From positions 2,370,001 through 2,402,000 of the forward strand of contig NZ_CP011391.1 of NCBI RefSeq assembly GCF_001564455.1: a stretch of 32,000 nucleotides of DNA, written 5' to 3'. A program made the position numbers and the translations under genes. The notes below the pieces were generated by a model. It was not told where the DNA came from and ran no database searches. It saw only the letters and a list, made by a program, of their open reading frames with translations. Shown in pieces: positions 887 to 6,141 of the stretch (the first letter of the stretch is position 1; each line of letters begins with the position of its first letter). Source of the stretch: Faecalibaculum rodentium. Its GTDB lineage: Bacteria; Bacillota_I; Bacilli_A; Erysipelotrichales; Erysipelotrichaceae.

Positions 887-1638
887 GCGCCCACCATCAT
901 CGCCGTCAGGCACCCCAGTGCAATGGCGATCGCCACCAGAAAGGCCTCCGTCGTGCCGGCCAGACCCGAGAGATAGTCTCCCGAAATCGTGTCGCGGATA
1001 CCGTTGGTGATGGCCAGTCCCGGCACCAGCAGGGCAATCGCAGCCACGACCGCCGATCCGACATCCAGTTCCGGAATCAGGTACTCCTGCACCATCATGG
1101 GCAGCCACGTGCAGAGAAACCCCGAAATCAGCGTGGCCAGCAGACCGTTGATGAATGTCTTCTGCAGCAGCCCGTCCACCAGCCAGATGATGAGGCCGAT
1201 CCCGAAAGCCGCCACAAGGCCCTGCAGACTGGCACCATCCATCATGCCGAATCCCACGGAACAGAATCCGCCTGCCAGGGCGATCACCCACCAGGGATAG
1301 CCCTTCTGGGCATCGATTTTGTCCAGTGCCCGTTCCATCTGACTCAGGGTCATGGCGGATGCATGCCGGGAGAGGCTGTTGATTTCATCCACCTTCGAGA
1401 GATCCGTGTCATAGTGCTGCACCCGGACCACACGGGTGATGATCCGTTCGTGTGCCTTGAAGGAAAACATGACACCGGTCCGTGTCACGAAGGCCTCGGG
1501 CTGTGCCACACCGGGAAAACTCAGGCAGATGCGGTTCATGGTGTCCTCCACGCGGTAGATTTCCGCCCCACTCTCCAGCAGGATCAGCCCTGCGCGCATG
1601 ACCACGGACGCCAGCCGGTTACTTTCCTGAAGATCCAA
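883..1638 (-). CDS. Threonine/serine exporter family protein, ThrE (DUF1212-like) half
   Basis: ...RAGLILLESGAEIYRVEDTMNRI... followed by TM helices. Start placed at TTG 1638, with GAGGAG 9 nt upstream. The alternative ATG at 1599 has no SD. Confidence 0.75.
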   Translation of the reverse strand: MDLQESNRLASVVMRAGLILLESGAEIYRVEDTMNRICLSFPGVAQPEAFVTRTGVMFSFKAHERIITRVVRVQHYDTDLSKVDEINSLSRHASAMTLSQMERALDKIDAQKGYPWWVIALAGGFCSVGFGMMDGASLQGLVAAFGIGLIIWLVDGLLQKTFINGLLATLISGFLCTWLPMMVQEYLIPELDVGSAVVAAIALLVPGLAITNGIRDTISGDYLSGLAGTTEAFLVAIAIALGCLTAMMVGA

Positions 1639-2116
1639 GGCGTCCCGCTCCTCTCTCGCTGGCGATATCCTGCAGGTCTTCGAACCGCAGCTCCTGCACC
1701 TCCGGTTCGGGCACCGGAAGCAGAATGGCCTGACACAGTGCCTTTTCATAGGGATACAGAAGGAAGGACTCCGCTTCCTTCAGATCCAGGGCTTTTTGGG
1801 CCTGTTCCTTGATAATCCGCAGCGGTTTTTCATTCAGGTTCGTCACCGGACACAGGTATTCCCCGCGGTATCCGGAGTCAATGACCCCGGAGCGCTGCGC
1901 AATCCCCTTCGTTCCCGTGGACCCCCGTTCCTTGAGAATCATTACATAGCCCGGATCGAAGGCACTCGCGATCCCCATAGGCACCATGCGGGTTTCCATG
2001 GGCCCGATTTCCAGCCAGTCTTCCTCGAAGCAGGGATACAGGTCATACCCCGCATCTTCCCGCCGCTTTGAAGGGATCCGAGCCCCGTCCTTCACTTTCG
2101 CCCAATACAGTTTCAT
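1619..2116 (-). CDS. dut: dUTP diphosphatase (trimeric dUTPase)
   Basis: Motifs AGYDLY, GVIDSGYRGE and C-terminal RGAGRLGSSG. AAGGAG RBS lies before ATG 2116. The longer ORF-track start at 2209 lacks an RBS. Confidence 0.85.
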   Translation of the reverse strand: MKLYWAKVKDGARIPSKRREDAGYDLYPCFEEDWLEIGPMETRMVPMGIASAFDPGYVMILKERGSTGTKGIAQRSGVIDSGYRGEYLCPVTNLNEKPLRIIKEQAQKALDLKEAESFLLYPYEKALCQAILLPVPEPEVQELRFEDLQDIASERGAGRLGSSGK

Positions 2117-2291: not shown

Positions 2292-2840
2292 TCAGTACCA
2301 GTTCTCCGGCACTTCCTGGGCCCGATCCAGGGCCCTGGCATACAGCGGTACCAGTTCATCCAGGTGTTCGTACATGAAATCCGCTCCCGAGGGAGAAGGC
2401 ACGTAGCAGACCTGGACATCCGCCGGGAAGTTCCAGTTCTCCCGGTCGATTTCGTGTTCGGCCATCCTTGATACACAGATGAGTTTTTTGATCGTGGGAT
2501 GCTCCTTCAGGAACCCCGCCATGTCATTGTACACTTCATCCGTTGTCGTATCCTGCTGAGACAGATGCCGTTTGCAGGATTTCAGCACAGACCAGATGGC
2601 GATTTTGTTTGCCTTGCACAGAGCCGTGCGTTCTTCGCTGGTCTCCGCCGGCATTTTGTAAATCGCGGCCATGACCTTCCAGAAATGATTGCCGGTATCC
2701 GCAAAGTAGAATTTGCGTGCTTCGGAATCGAAACTGGGCATGGTCATCAGAAACAGATATTCGCTGTCTTCAAACACCAGTGGCGGCAGAGCCGTGTAGG
2801 TCTGAAGATCGGATGTATCCCCGAATCCCGGGAGCTGCAT
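2292..2840 (-). CDS. UDG-superfamily DNA glycosylase (resembles family-6 DNA-deoxyinosine/hypoxanthine glycosylases)
   Basis: ...LFLMTMPSFDSEARKFYFADTGNHFWKVM... and ...CYVPSPSG... resemble UDG-fold motifs. AGGAGG RBS lies before ATG 2840. Confidence 0.6.
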   Translation of the reverse strand: MQLPGFGDTSDLQTYTALPPLVFEDSEYLFLMTMPSFDSEARKFYFADTGNHFWKVMAAIYKMPAETSEERTALCKANKIAIWSVLKSCKRHLSQQDTTTDEVYNDMAGFLKEHPTIKKLICVSRMAEHEIDRENWNFPADVQVCYVPSPSGADFMYEHLDELVPLYARALDRAQEVPENWY

Positions 2841-2926
2841 AAGGGTTCCTCCTTGTCGTATGCAATGCCGGTTTCTGTGCCGCCCTGCGCAGGCAGCCCG
2901 TACAGGCACAGACCGGCTGTGTTTTG

Positions 2927-2954
2927 AAAAAACGACCGGGGATGTCCCGGTCGT
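2927..2954 (-). terminator. Strong rho-independent terminator closing the small-protein array
   Basis: Minus strand reads ACGACCGGG-acatc-CCCGGTCGT followed by TTTTTTC. It lies 12 nt after the stop at 2966. Confidence 0.85.
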
Positions 2955-2965
2955 CTTGATCTGTC

Positions 2966-3229
2966 TTATTTCAGAGCTGCAAGGGCTTTTTCGACGATGG
3001 CGATTTTCTCGTCCTCGGCTGTGGCCTTCGCCTCTTCCCCGGCATCTTTGTGGATGCGGGCATAAGCTTTCAGGACACCGAGTTTCTCATCGAGACGGTC
3101 CTTCATGTCCTGGCCGTACTTTTTGTCTGCATCGCCGAAATCAGCGGCTGCCTCTTCGACAATTGCATCGCCATAGGGAGTTCCCCCAACGGCTTCCTTC
3201 AGTGCGCGTACCAGTTCATCTTTGGTCAT
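2966..3229 (-). CDS. Small helical protein, array copy 6 (subtype 'KAYARI'), family unrecognised
   Basis: 87 aa, MTKDELVRALKEAVGGTPYG...KYGQDMKDRLDEKLGVLKAYARI... AGGAGG RBS. Paralogous to five neighbouring ORFs. Confidence 0.8.
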   Translation of the reverse strand: MTKDELVRALKEAVGGTPYGDAIVEEAAADFGDADKKYGQDMKDRLDEKLGVLKAYARIHKDAGEEAKATAEDEKIAIVEKALAALK

Positions 3230-3268
3230 ATCGACACCTCCTGCCTTGCGTGTTTGAATGAAGAGATC

Positions 3269-3544
3269 TTACTGCAGAGCAGCAGCGGCCTTCTTCACGA
3301 TGGCCAGCTTGTCAGCTTCAGCAGCGGACTTTGCTTCTTCGCCCATCTGAGCGTCGCGGTTCATGTAGTACTCCAGGAATCCCAGACGGTCGTGCAGACG
3401 GTCCAGTGCGTCCTGGCCATACTTCTTGTCAGCATCGTCGTAAGTGGCTTCCAGAGCAGCGATCAGCTCTTTGCCATAAGCGGAATCACCGACAGCAGCT
3501 TCCAGCTTTGCAACCATTTCGGCCTTGGTCATTTTGTTTTCCAT
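3269..3544 (-). CDS. Small helical protein, array copy 5 (subtype 'LEYYM'), family unrecognised
   Basis: 91 aa if started at MENKMTKAEM... (ATG 3544). AAGAGG sits 9 nt upstream, the same spacing as in the other copies. The ORF-track start at 3625 has no support. Confidence 0.75.
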   Translation of the reverse strand: MENKMTKAEMVAKLEAAVGDSAYGKELIAALEATYDDADKKYGQDALDRLHDRLGFLEYYMNRDAQMGEEAKSAAEADKLAIVKKAAAALQ

Positions 3545-3641
3545 GATATTTTTACCTCTTTTATTTTGTTTCTGTTTTAAACAGGGAAGATCCGGCTCCG
3601 GTCTGGAACCGGATCTGATTGACATGATTTCTTAAGAGATC

Positions 3642-3905
3642 TTACTGCAGGGCAGCAGCGGCCTTCTTCACGATGGCCAGTTTGTCAGCTTCAGCAGCAG
3701 ACTTTGCTTCTTCGCCCATTTCAGCATCGCGCTTCATGTAGTACTCCAGGAAGCCCAGACGGTCGTGCAGACGGTCCAGAGCGTCCTGGCCATACTTCTT
3801 GTCGGCATCATCGAATGTGGCTTCCAGAGCAGCGATCAGCTCTTTGCCATATGCAGTATCACCAATAGCCGGTGTCAGTTTTGCGATCATTTCATCTTTT
3901 GTCAT
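3642..3905 (-). CDS. Small helical protein, array copy 4 (chimeric: N-terminus like copies 2/3, remainder like copy 5)
   Basis: 87 aa, with an AAGAGG RBS in the 32-nt spacer. Confidence 0.8.
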   Translation of the reverse strand: MTKDEMIAKLTPAIGDTAYGKELIAALEATFDDADKKYGQDALDRLHDRLGFLEYYMKRDAEMGEEAKSAAEADKLAIVKKAAAALQ

Positions 3906-3937
3906 GATATATTGCCTCTTTTTCTGTCTTCGAATTC

Positions 3938-4201
3938 TTACTTCAGAGCAGCCTGTGCTTTTTCCAGTACAGCTACCTTGTCTGCTTCAGCAGCAGCCTT
4001 GGCATCTTCGCCCATGGCAGCGTGCTTCTTTTCCCAGCCCTTCAGGAAGCCCAGACGGTCGTCGATGCGGTCCAGCGCATCCTGTCCGTACTTCTTGTCA
4101 GCATCGTCAAATGTGTCAGCCAGGACTTCGATCAGAGCCTTGCCGTATGCAGTATCACCGATAGCCGGTGTCAGTTTTGCGATCATTTCATCTTTTGTCA
4201 T
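3938..4201 (-). CDS. Small helical protein, array copy 3 (subtype 'LKGWEKKH')
   Basis: 87 aa. The protein is identical to copy 2. AAGAGG RBS. Confidence 0.8.
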   Translation of the reverse strand: MTKDEMIAKLTPAIGDTAYGKALIEVLADTFDDADKKYGQDALDRIDDRLGFLKGWEKKHAAMGEDAKAAAEADKVAVLEKAQAALK

Positions 4202-4233
4202 GATATATTGCCTCTTTTTCTGTCTTCGAATTC

Positions 4234-4497
4234 TTACTTCAGAGCAGCCTGTGCTTTTTCCAGGACAGCTACCTTGTCTGCTTCAGCAGCAGCCTTGGCA
4301 TCTTCGCCCATGGCAGCGTGCTTCTTTTCCCAGCCCTTCAGGAAGCCCAGACGGTCGTCGATGCGGTCCAGCGCATCCTGTCCGTACTTCTTGTCAGCGT
4401 CGTCAAATGTGTCAGCCAGGACTTCGATCAGAGCCTTGCCATATGCAGTATCGCCGATAGCCGGTGTCAGTTTTGCAATCATTTCATCTTTTGTCAT
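4234..4497 (-). CDS. Small helical protein, array copy 2 (subtype 'LKGWEKKH')
   Basis: 87 aa. The protein is identical to copy 3. GAGG RBS. Confidence 0.8.
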   Translation of the reverse strand: MTKDEMIAKLTPAIGDTAYGKALIEVLADTFDDADKKYGQDALDRIDDRLGFLKGWEKKHAAMGEDAKAAAEADKVAVLEKAQAALK

Positions 4498-4548
4498 TGT
4501 ATGTACCTCGTTTATATTCTCAATAATACGGATTTTCGTTCCGTACCG

Positions 4549-4812
4549 TTATTCAATTGCCTTCAGAGCTTTGTCGATGATCGCGATCTTATCCTCATCC
4601 GCGGTCTCGCGGGCCTCTTTTCCGAATGTCTTGTCGATCCGGGCATAGGCTTTCAGGATAGCCAGACGTAAGTCGAGACGGTCTTTCATGTCCCATCCAT
4701 ACTTGTGTTCACTGTCGCCGAATGTCTTTTCAGCTTCTTCGATCAGTTCCTTGCCGTAGGGGGTATCACCGACTGCAGCTGTCAGCTTGCTTACCAGTTC
4801 TTCTTTAGTCAT
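4549..4812 (-). CDS. Small helical protein, array copy 1 (subtype 'KAYARI')
   Basis: 87 aa, MTKEELVSKLTAAVGDTPYGKELIEEAEKTFGD... AAGGAGG RBS. It starts 39 nt after the rimO stop. Confidence 0.8.
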   Translation of the reverse strand: MTKEELVSKLTAAVGDTPYGKELIEEAEKTFGDSEHKYGWDMKDRLDLRLAILKAYARIDKTFGKEARETADEDKIAIIDKALKAIE

Positions 4813-4851: not shown

Positions 4852-6141
4852 TTATTCAGCCAGCACTCCCGCGACATCATATGGCCTTGCTTCGTCAATG
4901 CGTACATTCACGAAGGTGCCAGGTTCGATTTCCCTGGGACTCGTGAAGATCACCTGACCGTCCGCTTCGTCCGGCGCATCCGCTCTGGATCTGCCTCTGT
5001 AGCGCCCTGTCAGGGCTTCCCGTTCTTCCACCAGGACCTCGACCACTTGTCCGATCTTCTTTTGGTTGCTTTCCAGCGAGATCTGTTCCTGGACCTGCAT
5101 CAGCTGATCCAGGCGCCGTTGAGCCGTCTGCTCATCCACTTCAGGGCTCATGGACCAGGCCGGTGTATCTTCTTCTCTGGAGTAAGTGAAGGCACCAAAC
5201 CGGTCCCAGCGGACCTCTTTGACAAAGTCGAGCAGCTCCTGAAATTCCTCTTCAGTTTCGGTTGGAAAGCCGACAATTGCTGTCGTCCGCAGAGTTGCCT
5301 CCGGAAACATCTCGCGGATCCTGCTCACCAGTGCCAGAACGTCTTCCTTCGTACCCCGGCGATTCATCAGCTTCAGAAGCCGGTTGCTCGCATGCTGCAT
5401 GGGGATATCGAAGTAAGGAAGCACTTTGCTGCTCTCTTTCATGGCCTGAAGCACCTCTTCGGTGATTTCGTCGGGATACATATACAGGATGCGGATCCAG
5501 CGAATCCCTTCGATCCGGTCCACCTCACGGATGAGGTCGGCCAGCATCAGCCGTCCGTAGTTGTCCAGACCATATTTCGTGGTGTCCTGGGCAATCAGAG
5601 TGACTTCTTGAACACCATGTTCAGCCAGGGCCTCGATCTCTTCCCTGACCTCACTTAGAAGTTTACTCGTCTGATTTCCCCTTATCAAAGGAATTGCACA
5701 GTAAGTGCAGCGATTCGAGCACCCATCGCTTATCTTCACGTAAGCGCTCCAGGGATTGCCGCTCAAAGCCCTTTCTGACTTCGAAAAGCTTCCATTTCCT
5801 GCGTCTTTGAGCACCTCCTGCAGTTTTTCGGCCAGTTCTCCATAGTCCCGGATGGGAATTACCGCATCGATTTCCGGGATCTCCGAGCGCAGGGTCTCCT
5901 CATAGCGCTGAGCCAGGCACCCGGTGACGATCAGTTTTGACGCATACTGGCTCATTTCAAAGATGGTATTGATTGATTCTTCCTTTGCGGGCTGGATAAA
6001 CCCGCAGGTATTGATGACGATGGCGTCTGCCTGCCGGGGATCGCCGACGATTTCATGCCCGTTTTCCCGCAGGACGCCCATGATCTGCTCACTATCCACC
6101 AGATTCTTGCAGCAGCCCAGGGATACAAATCCGACCTTCAT
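4852..6141 (-). CDS. rimO: Ribosomal protein uS12 methylthiotransferase RimO (radical SAM MTTase)
   Basis: N-terminal MKVGFVSLGCCKNLVDSE, radical-SAM CSNRCTYC and a C-terminal TRAM-like region. Typical length of 429 aa. Confidence 0.93.
   Translation of the reverse strand: MKVGFVSLGCCKNLVDSEQIMGVLRENGHEIVGDPRQADAIVINTCGFIQPAKEESINTIFEMSQYASKLIVTGCLAQRYEETLRSEIPEIDAVIPIRDYGELAEKLQEVLKDAGNGSFSKSERALSGNPWSAYVKISDGCSNRCTYCAIPLIRGNQTSKLLSEVREEIEALAEHGVQEVTLIAQDTTKYGLDNYGRLMLADLIREVDRIEGIRWIRILYMYPDEITEEVLQAMKESSKVLPYFDIPMQHASNRLLKLMNRRGTKEDVLALVSRIREMFPEATLRTTAIVGFPTETEEEFQELLDFVKEVRWDRFGAFTYSREEDTPAWSMSPEVDEQTAQRRLDQLMQVQEQISLESNQKKIGQVVEVLVEEREALTGRYRGRSRADAPDEADGQVIFTSPREIEPGTFVNVRIDEARPYDVAGVLAE

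Follow-up and report, generated by a model that had tools for sequence, protein, structure and literature searches.

Tandem amplification of FRAT-87 genes downstream of rimO in Faecalibaculum rodentium

The closest described system to the locus reported here is FRAT-87 (NCBIfam NF045479), a curated subfamily HMM of 86 positions with a cutoff of 50 bits that is used by PGAP/RefSeq. The family is already catalogued by NCBI and functionally uncharacterised, and a literature search with the FRAT-87 name and accessions found no paper on the family or its function. Other systems invite comparison. WXG100/Esx loci of Firmicutes encode helical type VII secretion substrates of ~90-100 aa that lack a signal peptide and are often encoded as side-by-side paralogues. 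The multiple gvpA copies and the Asp23/Gls24 clusters, driven by dosage and encoding abundant small proteins of structural or stress function, combine tandem paralogues with strong ribosome-binding sites (RBS), the codon bias of bulk proteins and a copy number that varies between strains. YqeY and the GatB-YqeY tail (PDB 8xje, 8xjg and 1ng6; Pfam PF09424) are small, all-helical, of unknown or RNA-related role and encoded near translation genes; the YqeY gene often adjoins that of bS21, and the protein resembles the tRNA-binding tails of GatB/GlnRS (PMC13374519).

The locus that we analysed lies in a 32,000-nt stretch of the F. rodentium chromosome (the window). Its proteins are members of NF045479 without any difference, scoring over the full model as a single domain of ~87 residues. 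They resemble the WXG100/Esx proteins in being small, helical, free of a signal peptide and encoded in a multi-paralogue array, but have no WXG100 HMM match in Pfam or NCBIfam, are predicted to form a 4-5-helix bundle rather than a hairpin, and carry K-Y-G-Q/W-D rather than W-x-G. With gvpA and Asp23/Gls24 they share all the features of gene organisation named above; there is, however, no sequence or fold relationship, and the analogy is one of organisation and not of mechanism. YqeY is much larger (~148 aa, chains of 135-149, versus 87 aa), and FRAT-87 lacks its C-terminal subdomain, is acidic and shows only 14-20% identity to it.

The first-pass annotation had described six homologous minus-strand genes directly after yhaM and rimO, and an ORF check found all six where it had placed them (Table 1). 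They encode mutually homologous proteins of 87-91 aa (87 aa in five copies, 91 aa in one) and are separated, from copy 1 to copy 6, by gaps of 51, 32, 32, 97 and 39 nt, with another 39 nt between the rimO stop (4852) and the start of copy 1 (4812). Every copy is preceded by a strong Shine-Dalgarno sequence of its own, as had been described, read as AGGAGG in copies 1 and 6, AAGAGG in copies 3, 4 and 5, and ACGAGG in copy 2. Copy 5 starts at the ATG at 3544, the alternative 118-aa ORF that reaches 3625 having no RBS. The six ORFs cannot be put down to chance, because each matches the curated HMM with an E value of 1e-33 to 1e-39, dN/dS among the six paralogues is 0.08-0.39 and dN/dS between orthologues is 0-0.17; they are real genes, each individually maintained. 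Nor is the array an assembly artefact, since copies 2 and 3 differ at five synonymous sites and the six-gene layout, with its order of subtypes, recurs in five independent F. rodentium assemblies. Likewise, all five distinct protein sequences are carried by the F. rodentium ALO17 chromosome (2,542,486 bp), which was closed with PacBio reads (PMC4752744).

Table 1. Features of the FRAT-87 array and its immediate surroundings (positions in the window)
Feature	Position	Strand	Description
Intrinsic terminator closing the array	2926..2957 (approx.)	-	12-bp stem, 5-nt loop, U-run; dG -21 kcal/mol, z -5.9
FRAT-87 copy 6	2966..3229	-	87 aa; type A 'LKAYARIH'; identical to WP_067559732.1; NF045479 129 bits
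FRAT-87 copy 5	3269..3544	-	91 aa, MENK extension; 'LEYYMNRD'; identical to WP_067559734.1; NF045479 115 bits
RNA hairpin within the copy 4-copy 5 spacer (97 nt)	3588..3616	-	12-bp stem; z -6.2; without a good U-run
FRAT-87 copy 4	3642..3905	-	87 aa; 'LEYYMKRD' subtype; identical to WP_067559736.1; NF045479 122 bits
FRAT-87 copy 3	3938..4201	-	87 aa; protein identical to copy 2; from a recent 296-bp tandem duplication
296-bp unit (one gene + 32-nt spacer)	4103..4398	-	Twice in the window, once in 5-copy strains; MAFFT of arrays from the window, L004, L006 and L003
FRAT-87 copy 2	4234..4497	-	87 aa; type B 'LKGWEKKH'; identical to WP_067559738.1; NF045479 131.5 bits
FRAT-87 copy 1	4549..4812	-	87 aa; type A, divergent 'KYGWD...LKAYARID'; identical to WP_067559740.1; NF045479 117 bits
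rimO (ribosomal protein S12 methylthiotransferase)	4852..6141	-	Upstream neighbour, context only; TIGR01125 490 bits vs cutoff 357

The family had been called unrecognised, which does not stand: all six copies match NF045479 over model positions 1-86 with 115-131 bits, and all six are identical to RefSeq F. rodentium entries that already bear the name FRAT-87. Even at 25-30% identity, the very divergent relatives mostly pass the model too. The absence of a well-characterised profile match, on the other hand, was borne out, the sole curated match being NF045479, which supplies a name only. When the six proteins and ten divergent relatives were searched against Pfam, PHROGs and PADLOC, no family was matched; PHROGs gave only matches at E>=0.04 to the array proteins, and PADLOC gave none, and hence no anti-phage defence assignment. 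Searches of Pfam, NCBIfam, PHROGs, PADLOC and the PDB matched the proteins to no enzyme-like or known domain, and we found neither a Pfam counterpart nor a solved structure of the family. FRAT-87 is rare, with 30 matches among 1.84 billion cluster representatives, and the names and sources of the relatives, together with a genome-collection scan for family loci (at least two loci), place it in gut Erysipelotrichaceae-like bacteria only. One family member is auto-labelled 'RNA binding exosome subunit' in RefSeq, a label that most likely traces to a non-significant match (E 0.05).

The proteins have a mass of ~9.5 kDa and are highly charged, only mildly acidic (pI 4.8-5.1, net charge -4 to -5), Cys-free and without a signal peptide, in agreement with the earlier description. 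Alignment also confirmed the proposed arrangement of three subtypes in pairs, with ...LKAYARI... in copies 1 and 6, ...LKGWEKKH... in the identical proteins of copies 2 and 3, and ...LEYYM.RDA... in copies 4 and 5. Twenty-six columns are invariant across the six copies, among them K37-Y38-G39, D44-R45 and, at the C-terminus, K75/A77/K81/A82/A85, and residues L10, G15, Y19, G20, D44, R45, L46, G64, K75, K81, A82 and A85 are near-invariant across the family. The most conserved helix is the C-terminal one, whereas none of the nine residues at 54-62 is invariant among the window subtypes. Several identities suggested by local motifs were rejected. In the Walker-A-like G15-x4-G20-K21, K21 is not conserved and is followed by no S/T; the residue of the ACP-like 'GD[ST]' phosphopantetheine site is mostly Thr and lies at a helix N-cap, with no PP-binding match; and H60, a conceivable HPt-like phospho-His, is Asp in copies 1, 4 and 5. 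The invariant D44-R45 prompted the idea of a RimO substrate or S12 mimic, but most members are unlinked to rimO, and the S12 sequence around the modified Asp presumably bears no real similarity to this region. A RiPP precursor is at odds with a C-terminus that is conserved rather than variable, with the lack of Cys and with a confident globular domain, and the adjacent radical-SAM gene is a RimO equivalog.

The all-alpha structure that had been anticipated is also predicted by AlphaFold2. Two independent models (pLDDT 96.8 and 97.3, pTM 0.84 and 0.87; the pLDDT of 97.3 is that of copy 6) have the same helices, four long and one short, in which a pair of 12-residue helices packs against a 21+21-residue helical hairpin to give a compact bundle. 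The only recurring fold neighbour of both models in a Foldseek search of the PDB was YqeY (8xje/8xjg), with a query-normalised TM of 0.59-0.63 over ~87 columns (85-90), an rmsd of 3.5-4.3 A, a probability of 0.9-1.0 and an E value of 0.1-0.98. Homology to YqeY was nevertheless rejected: hhalign against an alignment of verified PDB YqeY sequences returned a probability of 0.3%, Pfam gave no match to YqeY / GatB_Yqey PF09424 at E<=10, and sequence-profile searches of the PDB with two alignments did not recover YqeY. Apart from ranaspumin-2 in the first of them, these profile searches recovered nothing but helical bundles of de novo design; the local 'GKEL...KYG.D.KD' resemblance to ranaspumin-2 was non-significant (E 0.29), and its fold, being alpha/beta, also differs. 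A Foldseek search of the viral fold library BFVD gave no match at E<=0.001.

The array had been thought to be co-transcribed with a translation/RNA-metabolism operon. The neighbouring rimO is secure, its product being a TIGR01125 equivalog with UPF0004, Radical_SAM and TRAM_2 domains (Pfam), whereas the gene named yhaM reached 305 bits with the YhaM model, under the cutoff of 460, and is referred to here as yhaM-like. The order yhaM-like, rimO, array is preserved in a second species; adjacency to rimO is, however, limited to F. rodentium and this one related species. Other members lie after a bile-salt-hydrolase-type gene, after dnaJ, beside thioredoxin (between two FRAT-87 genes in L021/L022, preceding one in L001) or, for the Dubosiella single copy, before an MntR-like repressor. 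Some members form monocistronic units with their own terminators; copies in the Dubosiella-like lineage each come with a separate long upstream region and a separate terminator, and no common promoter or operator motif was seen in the upstream regions of these monocistronic copies. The arrays have been amplified independently in unrelated contexts, and thus the link to rimO is local. The adjacency is real, but a functional tie to the operon is doubtful, as codon usage also differs from that of rimO and yhaM (see below), and annotation should not take it as functional.

The end of the array is marked by a strong terminator, as had been noted, and analogous terminators close the arrays of L003 and L014. 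A second strong hairpin, missing from the first-pass annotation, lies between copies 4 and 5 and is a candidate leaky terminator or 3'-end stabiliser. L003 has a hairpin of another sequence at the same position (z -3.3), and L014 has no significant equivalent. Neither a terminator nor a promoter was predicted between rimO and copy 1, which may be co-transcribed. When the window and three related loci were searched against Rfam, no array contained or adjoined an RNA element. The lone sigma-70-like match that a simple scan found within the array overlaps the start codon of copy 2, and no promoter was seen ahead of copy 1, so that nothing in the scan accounts for expression of copies 2-5 far above that of rimO.

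Such expression is nonetheless what codon usage implies. As a proxy we used a synonymous-codon log-likelihood (LLR), whose reference set is small and drawn from the window. GCT accounts for 51% versus 11% of Ala codons, and CGT for 53% versus 8% of Arg codons. Copies 2-5 scored from +0.24 (copies 2 and 4) to +0.32 (copy 5, the highest), compared with +0.16 for DnaK and +0.13 to +0.22 for mannose-PTS genes; rimO (-0.25), yhaM and most other genes lay between -0.06 and -0.35. The outer copies 1 (+0.09) and 6 (-0.06) show no strong bias. A bias in copies 2-5 that equals or exceeds that of dnaK and the PTS genes implies very high expression, and by this codon proxy FRAT-87 proteins are probably very abundant. 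F. rodentium proteomics, searched in the literature and its supplements, yielded no FRAT-87 protein-level data. Among mouse-gut commensals, F. rodentium and Dubosiella are dominant and figure in many host-microbe studies; if the inference from codon bias is true, a protein with no literature and no significant structural relative would be among their most expressed products.

Every copy is under purifying selection. Copies 2 and 3 are 98.1% identical in nucleotide sequence and differ by 5 synonymous and 0 nonsynonymous changes, copy 4 differs from its counterpart in the diverged strain L003 by 19 and 0, and copy 5 by 21 and 2; between strains, dN/dS is 0.17 for copy 1 and 0.06 for copy 2, against 0.08 for rimO. 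Copy number is 4, 5 or 6 in the assemblies of the strains. The 5-copy strains L006 and L008 carry the window array minus exactly one 296-bp unit, while L003 has four copies and lacks copy 6. In the window, the first 21 residues of copy 4 and its upstream spacer are identical to those of copy 3, and a further protein, P0003, is a chimera of copies 2 and 4. Elsewhere, five type-A copies follow rimO in L014, three or more near-identical type-B copies are present in L016, Dubosiella has 1 + 2 copies at two loci, and L001 and L002 have single copies: arrays were amplified independently in several lineages, from other founder subtypes. The F. rodentium array arose through successive rounds of local tandem duplication and unequal crossing-over, most recently by amplification of the 296-bp unit into copies 2 and 3.

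We favour a reading, to which we give an even chance of being right as a whole, in which FRAT-87 is an abundant, non-enzymatic cytoplasmic protein whose supply was raised by tandem gene amplification, along the duplication history above and uncoupled from rimO. The bulk amount would be supplied by gene amplification together with strong ribosome-binding sites and optimised codons, and the protein would act stoichiometrically, binding, buffering or protecting some partner. The polar, near-invariant residues G15, Y19-G20, K37-Y38 and D44-R45-L46, which the models place in or next to helix-joining loops, form a candidate common binding site, and helix 4 may provide a subtype-specific surface in its C-terminal half (residues 54-62). 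The position after rimO and the yhaM-like gene would then be a lineage-specific accident of array growth without functional coupling. What counts against this reading is that each subtype is under strong constraint of its own kind, which suggests that dosage is not everything, and that an 'abundant binder' is generic. A bolder version, which we put forward tentatively and think rather unlikely to hold in full, is that FRAT-87 represents an unstudied class of very abundant cytoplasmic protein of rodent- and rabbit-gut Erysipelotrichaceae-like bacteria with an essentially new helical-bundle fold, whose copy number is tuned by ongoing unequal crossing-over and whose helix-4 surfaces give the paralogues different partners. 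If so, the array would be a major uncharacterised part of the physiology of F. rodentium, a commensal much used in immunity and cancer models, and not a passenger of the rimO operon.

Other explanations have to be weighed against the abundant-protein reading. FRAT-87 might be a truncated YqeY/GatB-tail-like helical domain, made from the same transcript as rimO and the yhaM-like exoribonuclease and acting on the ribosome, tRNA or RNA turnover. The uninterrupted 39 nt after rimO, the gene order kept in the second species, YqeY as top PDB fold neighbour of both models, its ties to bS21 and the GatB/GlnRS tails, and a weak viral-search match to the annotated aspartyl-tRNA amidotransferase subunit B of a phage are consistent with such a translation or RNA accessory factor. 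We nonetheless consider it unlikely: neither the Foldseek E values nor hhalign nor Pfam support the relationship, the C-terminal YqeY subdomain is missing, a pI of ~4.9 is a poor fit to RNA binding, most lineages have FRAT-87 at sites that do not adjoin rimO, whether among unrelated genes or as monocistronic units, and codon usage is sharply unlike that of rimO and yhaM. There is also a slim chance that subtypes A, B and EYYM are stoichiometric subunits of one obligate hetero-oligomer, which would account for different paralogues lying side by side. Strong conservation between strains holds for each subtype separately, and the subtype order is constant in the F. rodentium assemblies; yet L014 has type A only and L016 type B only, L001 and L002 manage with single copies, L003 does without copy 6, and the monomer models are confident, with high pTM.

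Smaller still is the likelihood that these are leaderless, host-facing proteins, exported non-classically (by a type VII-like route or lysis), with paralogues diversifying under host/immune or inter-bacterial selection in the rodent gut. Their dN/dS is very low, without sign of diversifying selection; Pfam and NCBIfam gave no WXG100 or T7SS match; the predicted bundle is not the two-helix hairpin of that family; and neither T7SS machinery (EssC, FtsK-like ATPase) nor other secretion genes occur in the 32-kb window or the fetched neighbourhoods. In favour of export are an array that resembles WXG100/Esx-type loci, a family restricted to gut Erysipelotrichaceae-like bacteria, and subtype differences gathered on the one helix segment of residues 54-62. 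The explanation that we find least probable is a stress or DNA-hygiene regulator or mimic, with acidic FRAT-87 modulating a nearby-encoded DNA-repair glycosylase or a redox/metal-stress pathway. Three independent contexts do have a DNA glycosylase gene only a few genes from FRAT-87: in F. rodentium a deoxyinosine glycosylase, together with a dUTPase, lies directly downstream of the array; at Dubosiella locus 2 a UDG lies five genes downstream; and in L001 and L021 a MutY lies two genes upstream. The thioredoxin and MntR-like neighbours described above fit the same idea. However, these associations were spotted post hoc and are not universal, the net charge, at -4 to -5, is low by the standard of a DNA mimic, there is no Cys for redox chemistry, the PDB Foldseek search returned no glycosylase inhibitors, and it is difficult to see why a cell would constitutively make large amounts of a protein that inhibits its own repair enzymes.

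The array offers a clean natural case of recent, still polymorphic tandem amplification, with 4, 5 or 6 copies, an exact repeat unit and chimeric alleles. Many FRAT-87 entries in RefSeq are 'partial' and lie at contig ends, indicating that the array breaks short-read assemblies.

The family encoded by the array is already catalogued by name and so does not represent the discovery of a new one. Although the first-pass annotation had called it unrecognised, the NCBIfam model NF045479 ('FRAT-87 protein') matches all six proteins over its whole 86 positions (115-131 bits; the curated cutoff is 50). RefSeq likewise applies this name to identical entries from Faecalibaculum rodentium (WP_067559740, WP_067559738, WP_067559736, WP_067559734 and WP_067559732), which sit on the 2,542,486-bp chromosome of strain ALO17, closed with PacBio (PMC4752744). 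Functionally, FRAT-87 is nevertheless an orphan, and several of its properties are notable. Pfam gave no match for the six proteins even at E<=10, PHROGs and PADLOC gave none for the copies, PDB profile searches returned no sequence-related solved structure, and literature searches turned up neither a paper containing the name or its accessions nor any expression, localisation or interaction data. Relatives at 25-30% identity match NF045479 alone. A cluster member, P0093 (database entries for 4234-4497 and relatives), bears the JGI name 'RNA binding exosome subunit', which most likely reflects a non-significant match to PRK14555 (E 0.05).

Six consecutive minus-strand ORFs were found at precisely the positions first proposed within 2966-4812, and a Shine-Dalgarno element can be read 7-11 nt ahead of every start codon, in keeping with the claim that each copy has its own ribosome-binding site. 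From copy 1 to copy 6 the intervening gaps are 51, 32, 32, 97 and 39 nt, and 39 nt separate copy 1 from the upstream gene. Alignment bears out both the proposed homology (an MTK[DE]E start, a K-Y-G-[QW]-D...D-R core and a conserved C-terminal helix) and the grouping into three subtype pairs (copies 1/6, 2/3 and 4/5), with copies 2 and 3 encoding identical proteins. The products, of about 9.4-9.8 kDa, are indeed mildly acidic (pI 4.8-5.1, net charge -4 to -5), with no Cys in any of the six. That these are real genes, belong to FRAT-87 and originated by tandem amplification we regard as close to certain. A strong terminator does follow copy 6, and a second strong hairpin, absent from the first-pass annotation, lies between copies 4 and 5. 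Strain L003 carries a hairpin of different sequence at the same position (z -3.3), and the element may be a leaky terminator, attenuator, processing site or 3'-end stabiliser. An Rfam search found no RNA family in or near any array, in the window or at related loci.

Features of the array and of the surrounding window
Feature	Position	Strand	Details
dUTPase	1619-2116	-	downstream of array, with deoxyinosine glycosylase gene
DNA-deoxyinosine glycosylase	2292-2840	-	directly downstream of array terminator; TIGR04274, 84.7 bits (cutoff 80)
Terminator	2926-2957		3' of copy 6; dG -21 kcal/mol, z -5.9
FRAT-87 copy 6	2966-3229	-	Shine-Dalgarno AGGAGG
FRAT-87 copy 5	3269-3544	-	Shine-Dalgarno AAGAGG
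Hairpin, copy 4-copy 5 gap	3588-3616	-	12 bp; z -6.2; without proper U-run
FRAT-87 copy 4	3642-3905	-	Shine-Dalgarno AAGAGG
FRAT-87 copy 3	3938-4201	-	Shine-Dalgarno AAGAGG
FRAT-87 copy 2	4234-4497	-	Shine-Dalgarno ACGAGG
FRAT-87 copy 1	4549-4812	-	Shine-Dalgarno AGGAGG
rimO	4852-6141	-	TIGR01125, 490 bits (cutoff 357)
677-aa fusion protein	7285-9318	-	N-terminal GT4 glycosyltransferase, C-terminal RecX-like
Group II intron	17850-19642	-	RT/maturase ORF 17850-19199 (Pfam RVT_1 and GIIM)
Group II D1-D4 domains (Rfam)	19330-19409, 19468-19642	-	part of group II intron
Schlafen AlbA_2/HATPase_c_4 gene	25321-26586	+	weak PADLOC matches to pAgo-associated proteins
618-aa ORF antisense to dnaK	28134-29990	+	Pfam PF10712 'NAD-GH', E 2e-143

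Within the array, paralogue dN/dS is 0.08-0.39, and copies 2 and 3 differ by five synonymous and zero nonsynonymous changes. Against the diverged strain L003 (rimO nucleotide divergence about 8%), copy 4 shows 19 synonymous and 0 nonsynonymous changes and copy 5 shows 21 and 2, while orthologue dN/dS is 0.06 for copy 2 and 0.17 for copy 1 beside 0.08 for rimO, so that the inner copies are constrained at least as much as a housekeeping enzyme. The six-gene layout is present in five independent assemblies, and two assemblies with five copies fall short of the window's array by a single exact 296-bp unit (one gene with its 32-nt spacer). The array of L003 numbers four copies, being without copies 3 and 6, and has its own terminator immediately 3' of copy 5. 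The first 21 codons and upstream spacer of copy 4 are common to copy 3, and the public entry P0003 is a chimeric allele of copies 2 and 4. Together these observations show unequal crossing-over or gene conversion that is still ongoing. They also argue against the assembly artefact considered at the outset, although short-read collapse could explain some five-copy cases. That short-read assemblies break at the array is shown by the many RefSeq entries for FRAT-87 labelled 'partial' where contigs end.

When 1.84 billion cluster representatives were searched exhaustively with HMMER, no more than 30 proteins passed E<=1e-3, and 13 passed E<=1e-10. The named members belong to F. rodentium, uncultured Faecalibaculum and Dubosiella newyorkensis, and single copies occur in two rabbit-gut MAGs. 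The tree splits the copies into type A ('AYERIH'), comprising copies 1 and 6, all five copies at the related locus L014 and the rabbit MAG copies, and type B ('GWEKKH'), comprising the Dubosiella-like copies together with copies 2 and 3; type B also gave rise to copies 4 and 5 ('EYYMKRD'). At L014 the five type-A genes lie 3' of rimO, at least three type-B genes of another locus (L016) share 92-97% identity, and Dubosiella carries a single copy at one locus and a pair at a second. The founders that were amplified differ between lineages.

The upstream neighbour is a true RimO, preceded by a YhaM-like gene (305 bits, under the NCBIfam cutoff of 460). When synteny downstream of rimO was compared as the first-pass annotation had suggested, the yhaM-like, rimO, array order held in one related species and was common to that species only. 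At L014 the glycosylase-dUTPase pair is parted from the array by an inserted block of transaldolase, PFL and PFL-activase genes. Elsewhere, FRAT-87 genes are found between a NanE-like gene and an MntR-like repressor, after a choloylglycine-hydrolase-type gene, after a glycerate kinase gene and an unannotated 240-aa gene (L016), between a radical-SAM gene and a sortase gene, and after two dnaJ genes. At L021 (6258-7273), L022 and L001 (5876-6511) they flank or follow a thioredoxin gene with mutY upstream; these thioredoxin-linked loci belong to two other lineages, with GC contents of 53% and 43%. Copies of the Dubosiella-like lineage are each preceded by an upstream region of 180-380 nt and usually have a terminator of their own. 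Given such varied contexts, linkage to rimO is a local feature, not one that characterises the family. We also noticed, post hoc, DNA glycosylase genes (HDG, UDG, MutY) no more than a few genes away from FRAT-87 in three independent contexts.

To score codon usage, dnaK, grpE and the mannose-PTS genes of the window stood for highly expressed genes, with twelve others serving as background. In log-likelihood units per codon, copies 2-5 reach +0.24 to +0.32 and copies 1 and 6 reach +0.09 and -0.06, compared with +0.16 for DnaK, +0.13 to +0.22 for the PTS genes, -0.25 for RimO, -0.19 for yhaM and -0.06 to -0.35 for nearly all remaining genes. GCT makes up 51% of Ala codons (11% in background genes) and CGT 53% of Arg codons (8%), whereas ACG does not occur and the rare GCG, CGG and GGG account for 5-6% each. 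As a proxy for expression, this codon choice is the translational-selection signature of very highly expressed genes, unlike that of the genes upstream. A crude promoter scan came up empty upstream of copy 1; its sole site in the array overlaps the copy 2 start codon.

Two independent AlphaFold2 models, of copy 2 (15 sequences) and copy 6 (35 sequences), were predicted with very high confidence (pLDDT 96.8 and 97.3, pTM 0.84 and 0.87) and have the same architecture, namely helices at 3-14 and 18-29, a short helix at 31-35 and a long hairpin of 42-62 and 66-86. Residues L10, G15, Y19, G20, D44, R45, L46, G64, K75, K81, A82 and A85 are near-invariant across the family, and the polar ones cluster in or beside the loops joining helices 1-2 and 3-4. 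The subtypes are defined by residues 54-62, the C-terminal half of helix 4, where 0/9 positions are invariant among the window subtypes. On the models, the near-invariant residues may therefore form a common site and residues 54-62 a subtype-specific surface.

Our tentative reading, which could well prove wrong, is that FRAT-87 is an abundant, soluble, non-enzymatic cytoplasmic helical bundle that would act stoichiometrically, its supply being raised by tandem amplification, strong ribosome-binding sites and optimised codons. Foldseek against the PDB returned nothing at E<=0.001 for either model, and the top and only recurring fold neighbour was YqeY (8xje, 8xjg; TM 0.59-0.63, 14-20% identity, E 0.1-0.98), itself poorly characterised (PMC13374519). 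This likeness, with the position beside rimO, would suit a YqeY-like translation or RNA factor tied to rimO, which we consider unlikely. Comparing the FRAT-87 alignment with one made for YqeY from verified PDB sequences gave an hhalign probability of 0.3%; the likeness therefore stays a sub-threshold fold similarity and membership of the YqeY family was rejected, and the rimO linkage is local. Slightly less likely again is an obligate hetero-oligomer built of the subtypes, which fits poorly with single copies in the rabbit-gut MAGs. A leaderless exported or host-facing protein, in place of a cytoplasmic one, strikes us as improbable, and a modulator of stress or DNA hygiene, despite recurrent glycosylase, thioredoxin and MntR neighbours, as the least probable of these.

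The window holds several other features. In the fusion protein the N-terminus resembles alpha-monoglucosyldiacylglycerol synthase and the C-terminus matches NF010733 (residues 434-646) and Pfam RecX_HTH3; combining a membrane-glycolipid enzyme with a RecA-regulator-like domain makes for an unusual architecture, and the fusion is kept in all related loci. The AlbA_2/HATPase_c_4 gene has a low GC3 (0.44; every other scored gene lies at 0.55-0.77), the five ORFs beside it (19919-25224) gave no Pfam or PADLOC match, and together they may be an acquired island adjoining the group II intron. Finally, the ORF antisense to dnaK was rejected as a gene because PF10712 is a known artefact family made of antisense translations of dnaK.
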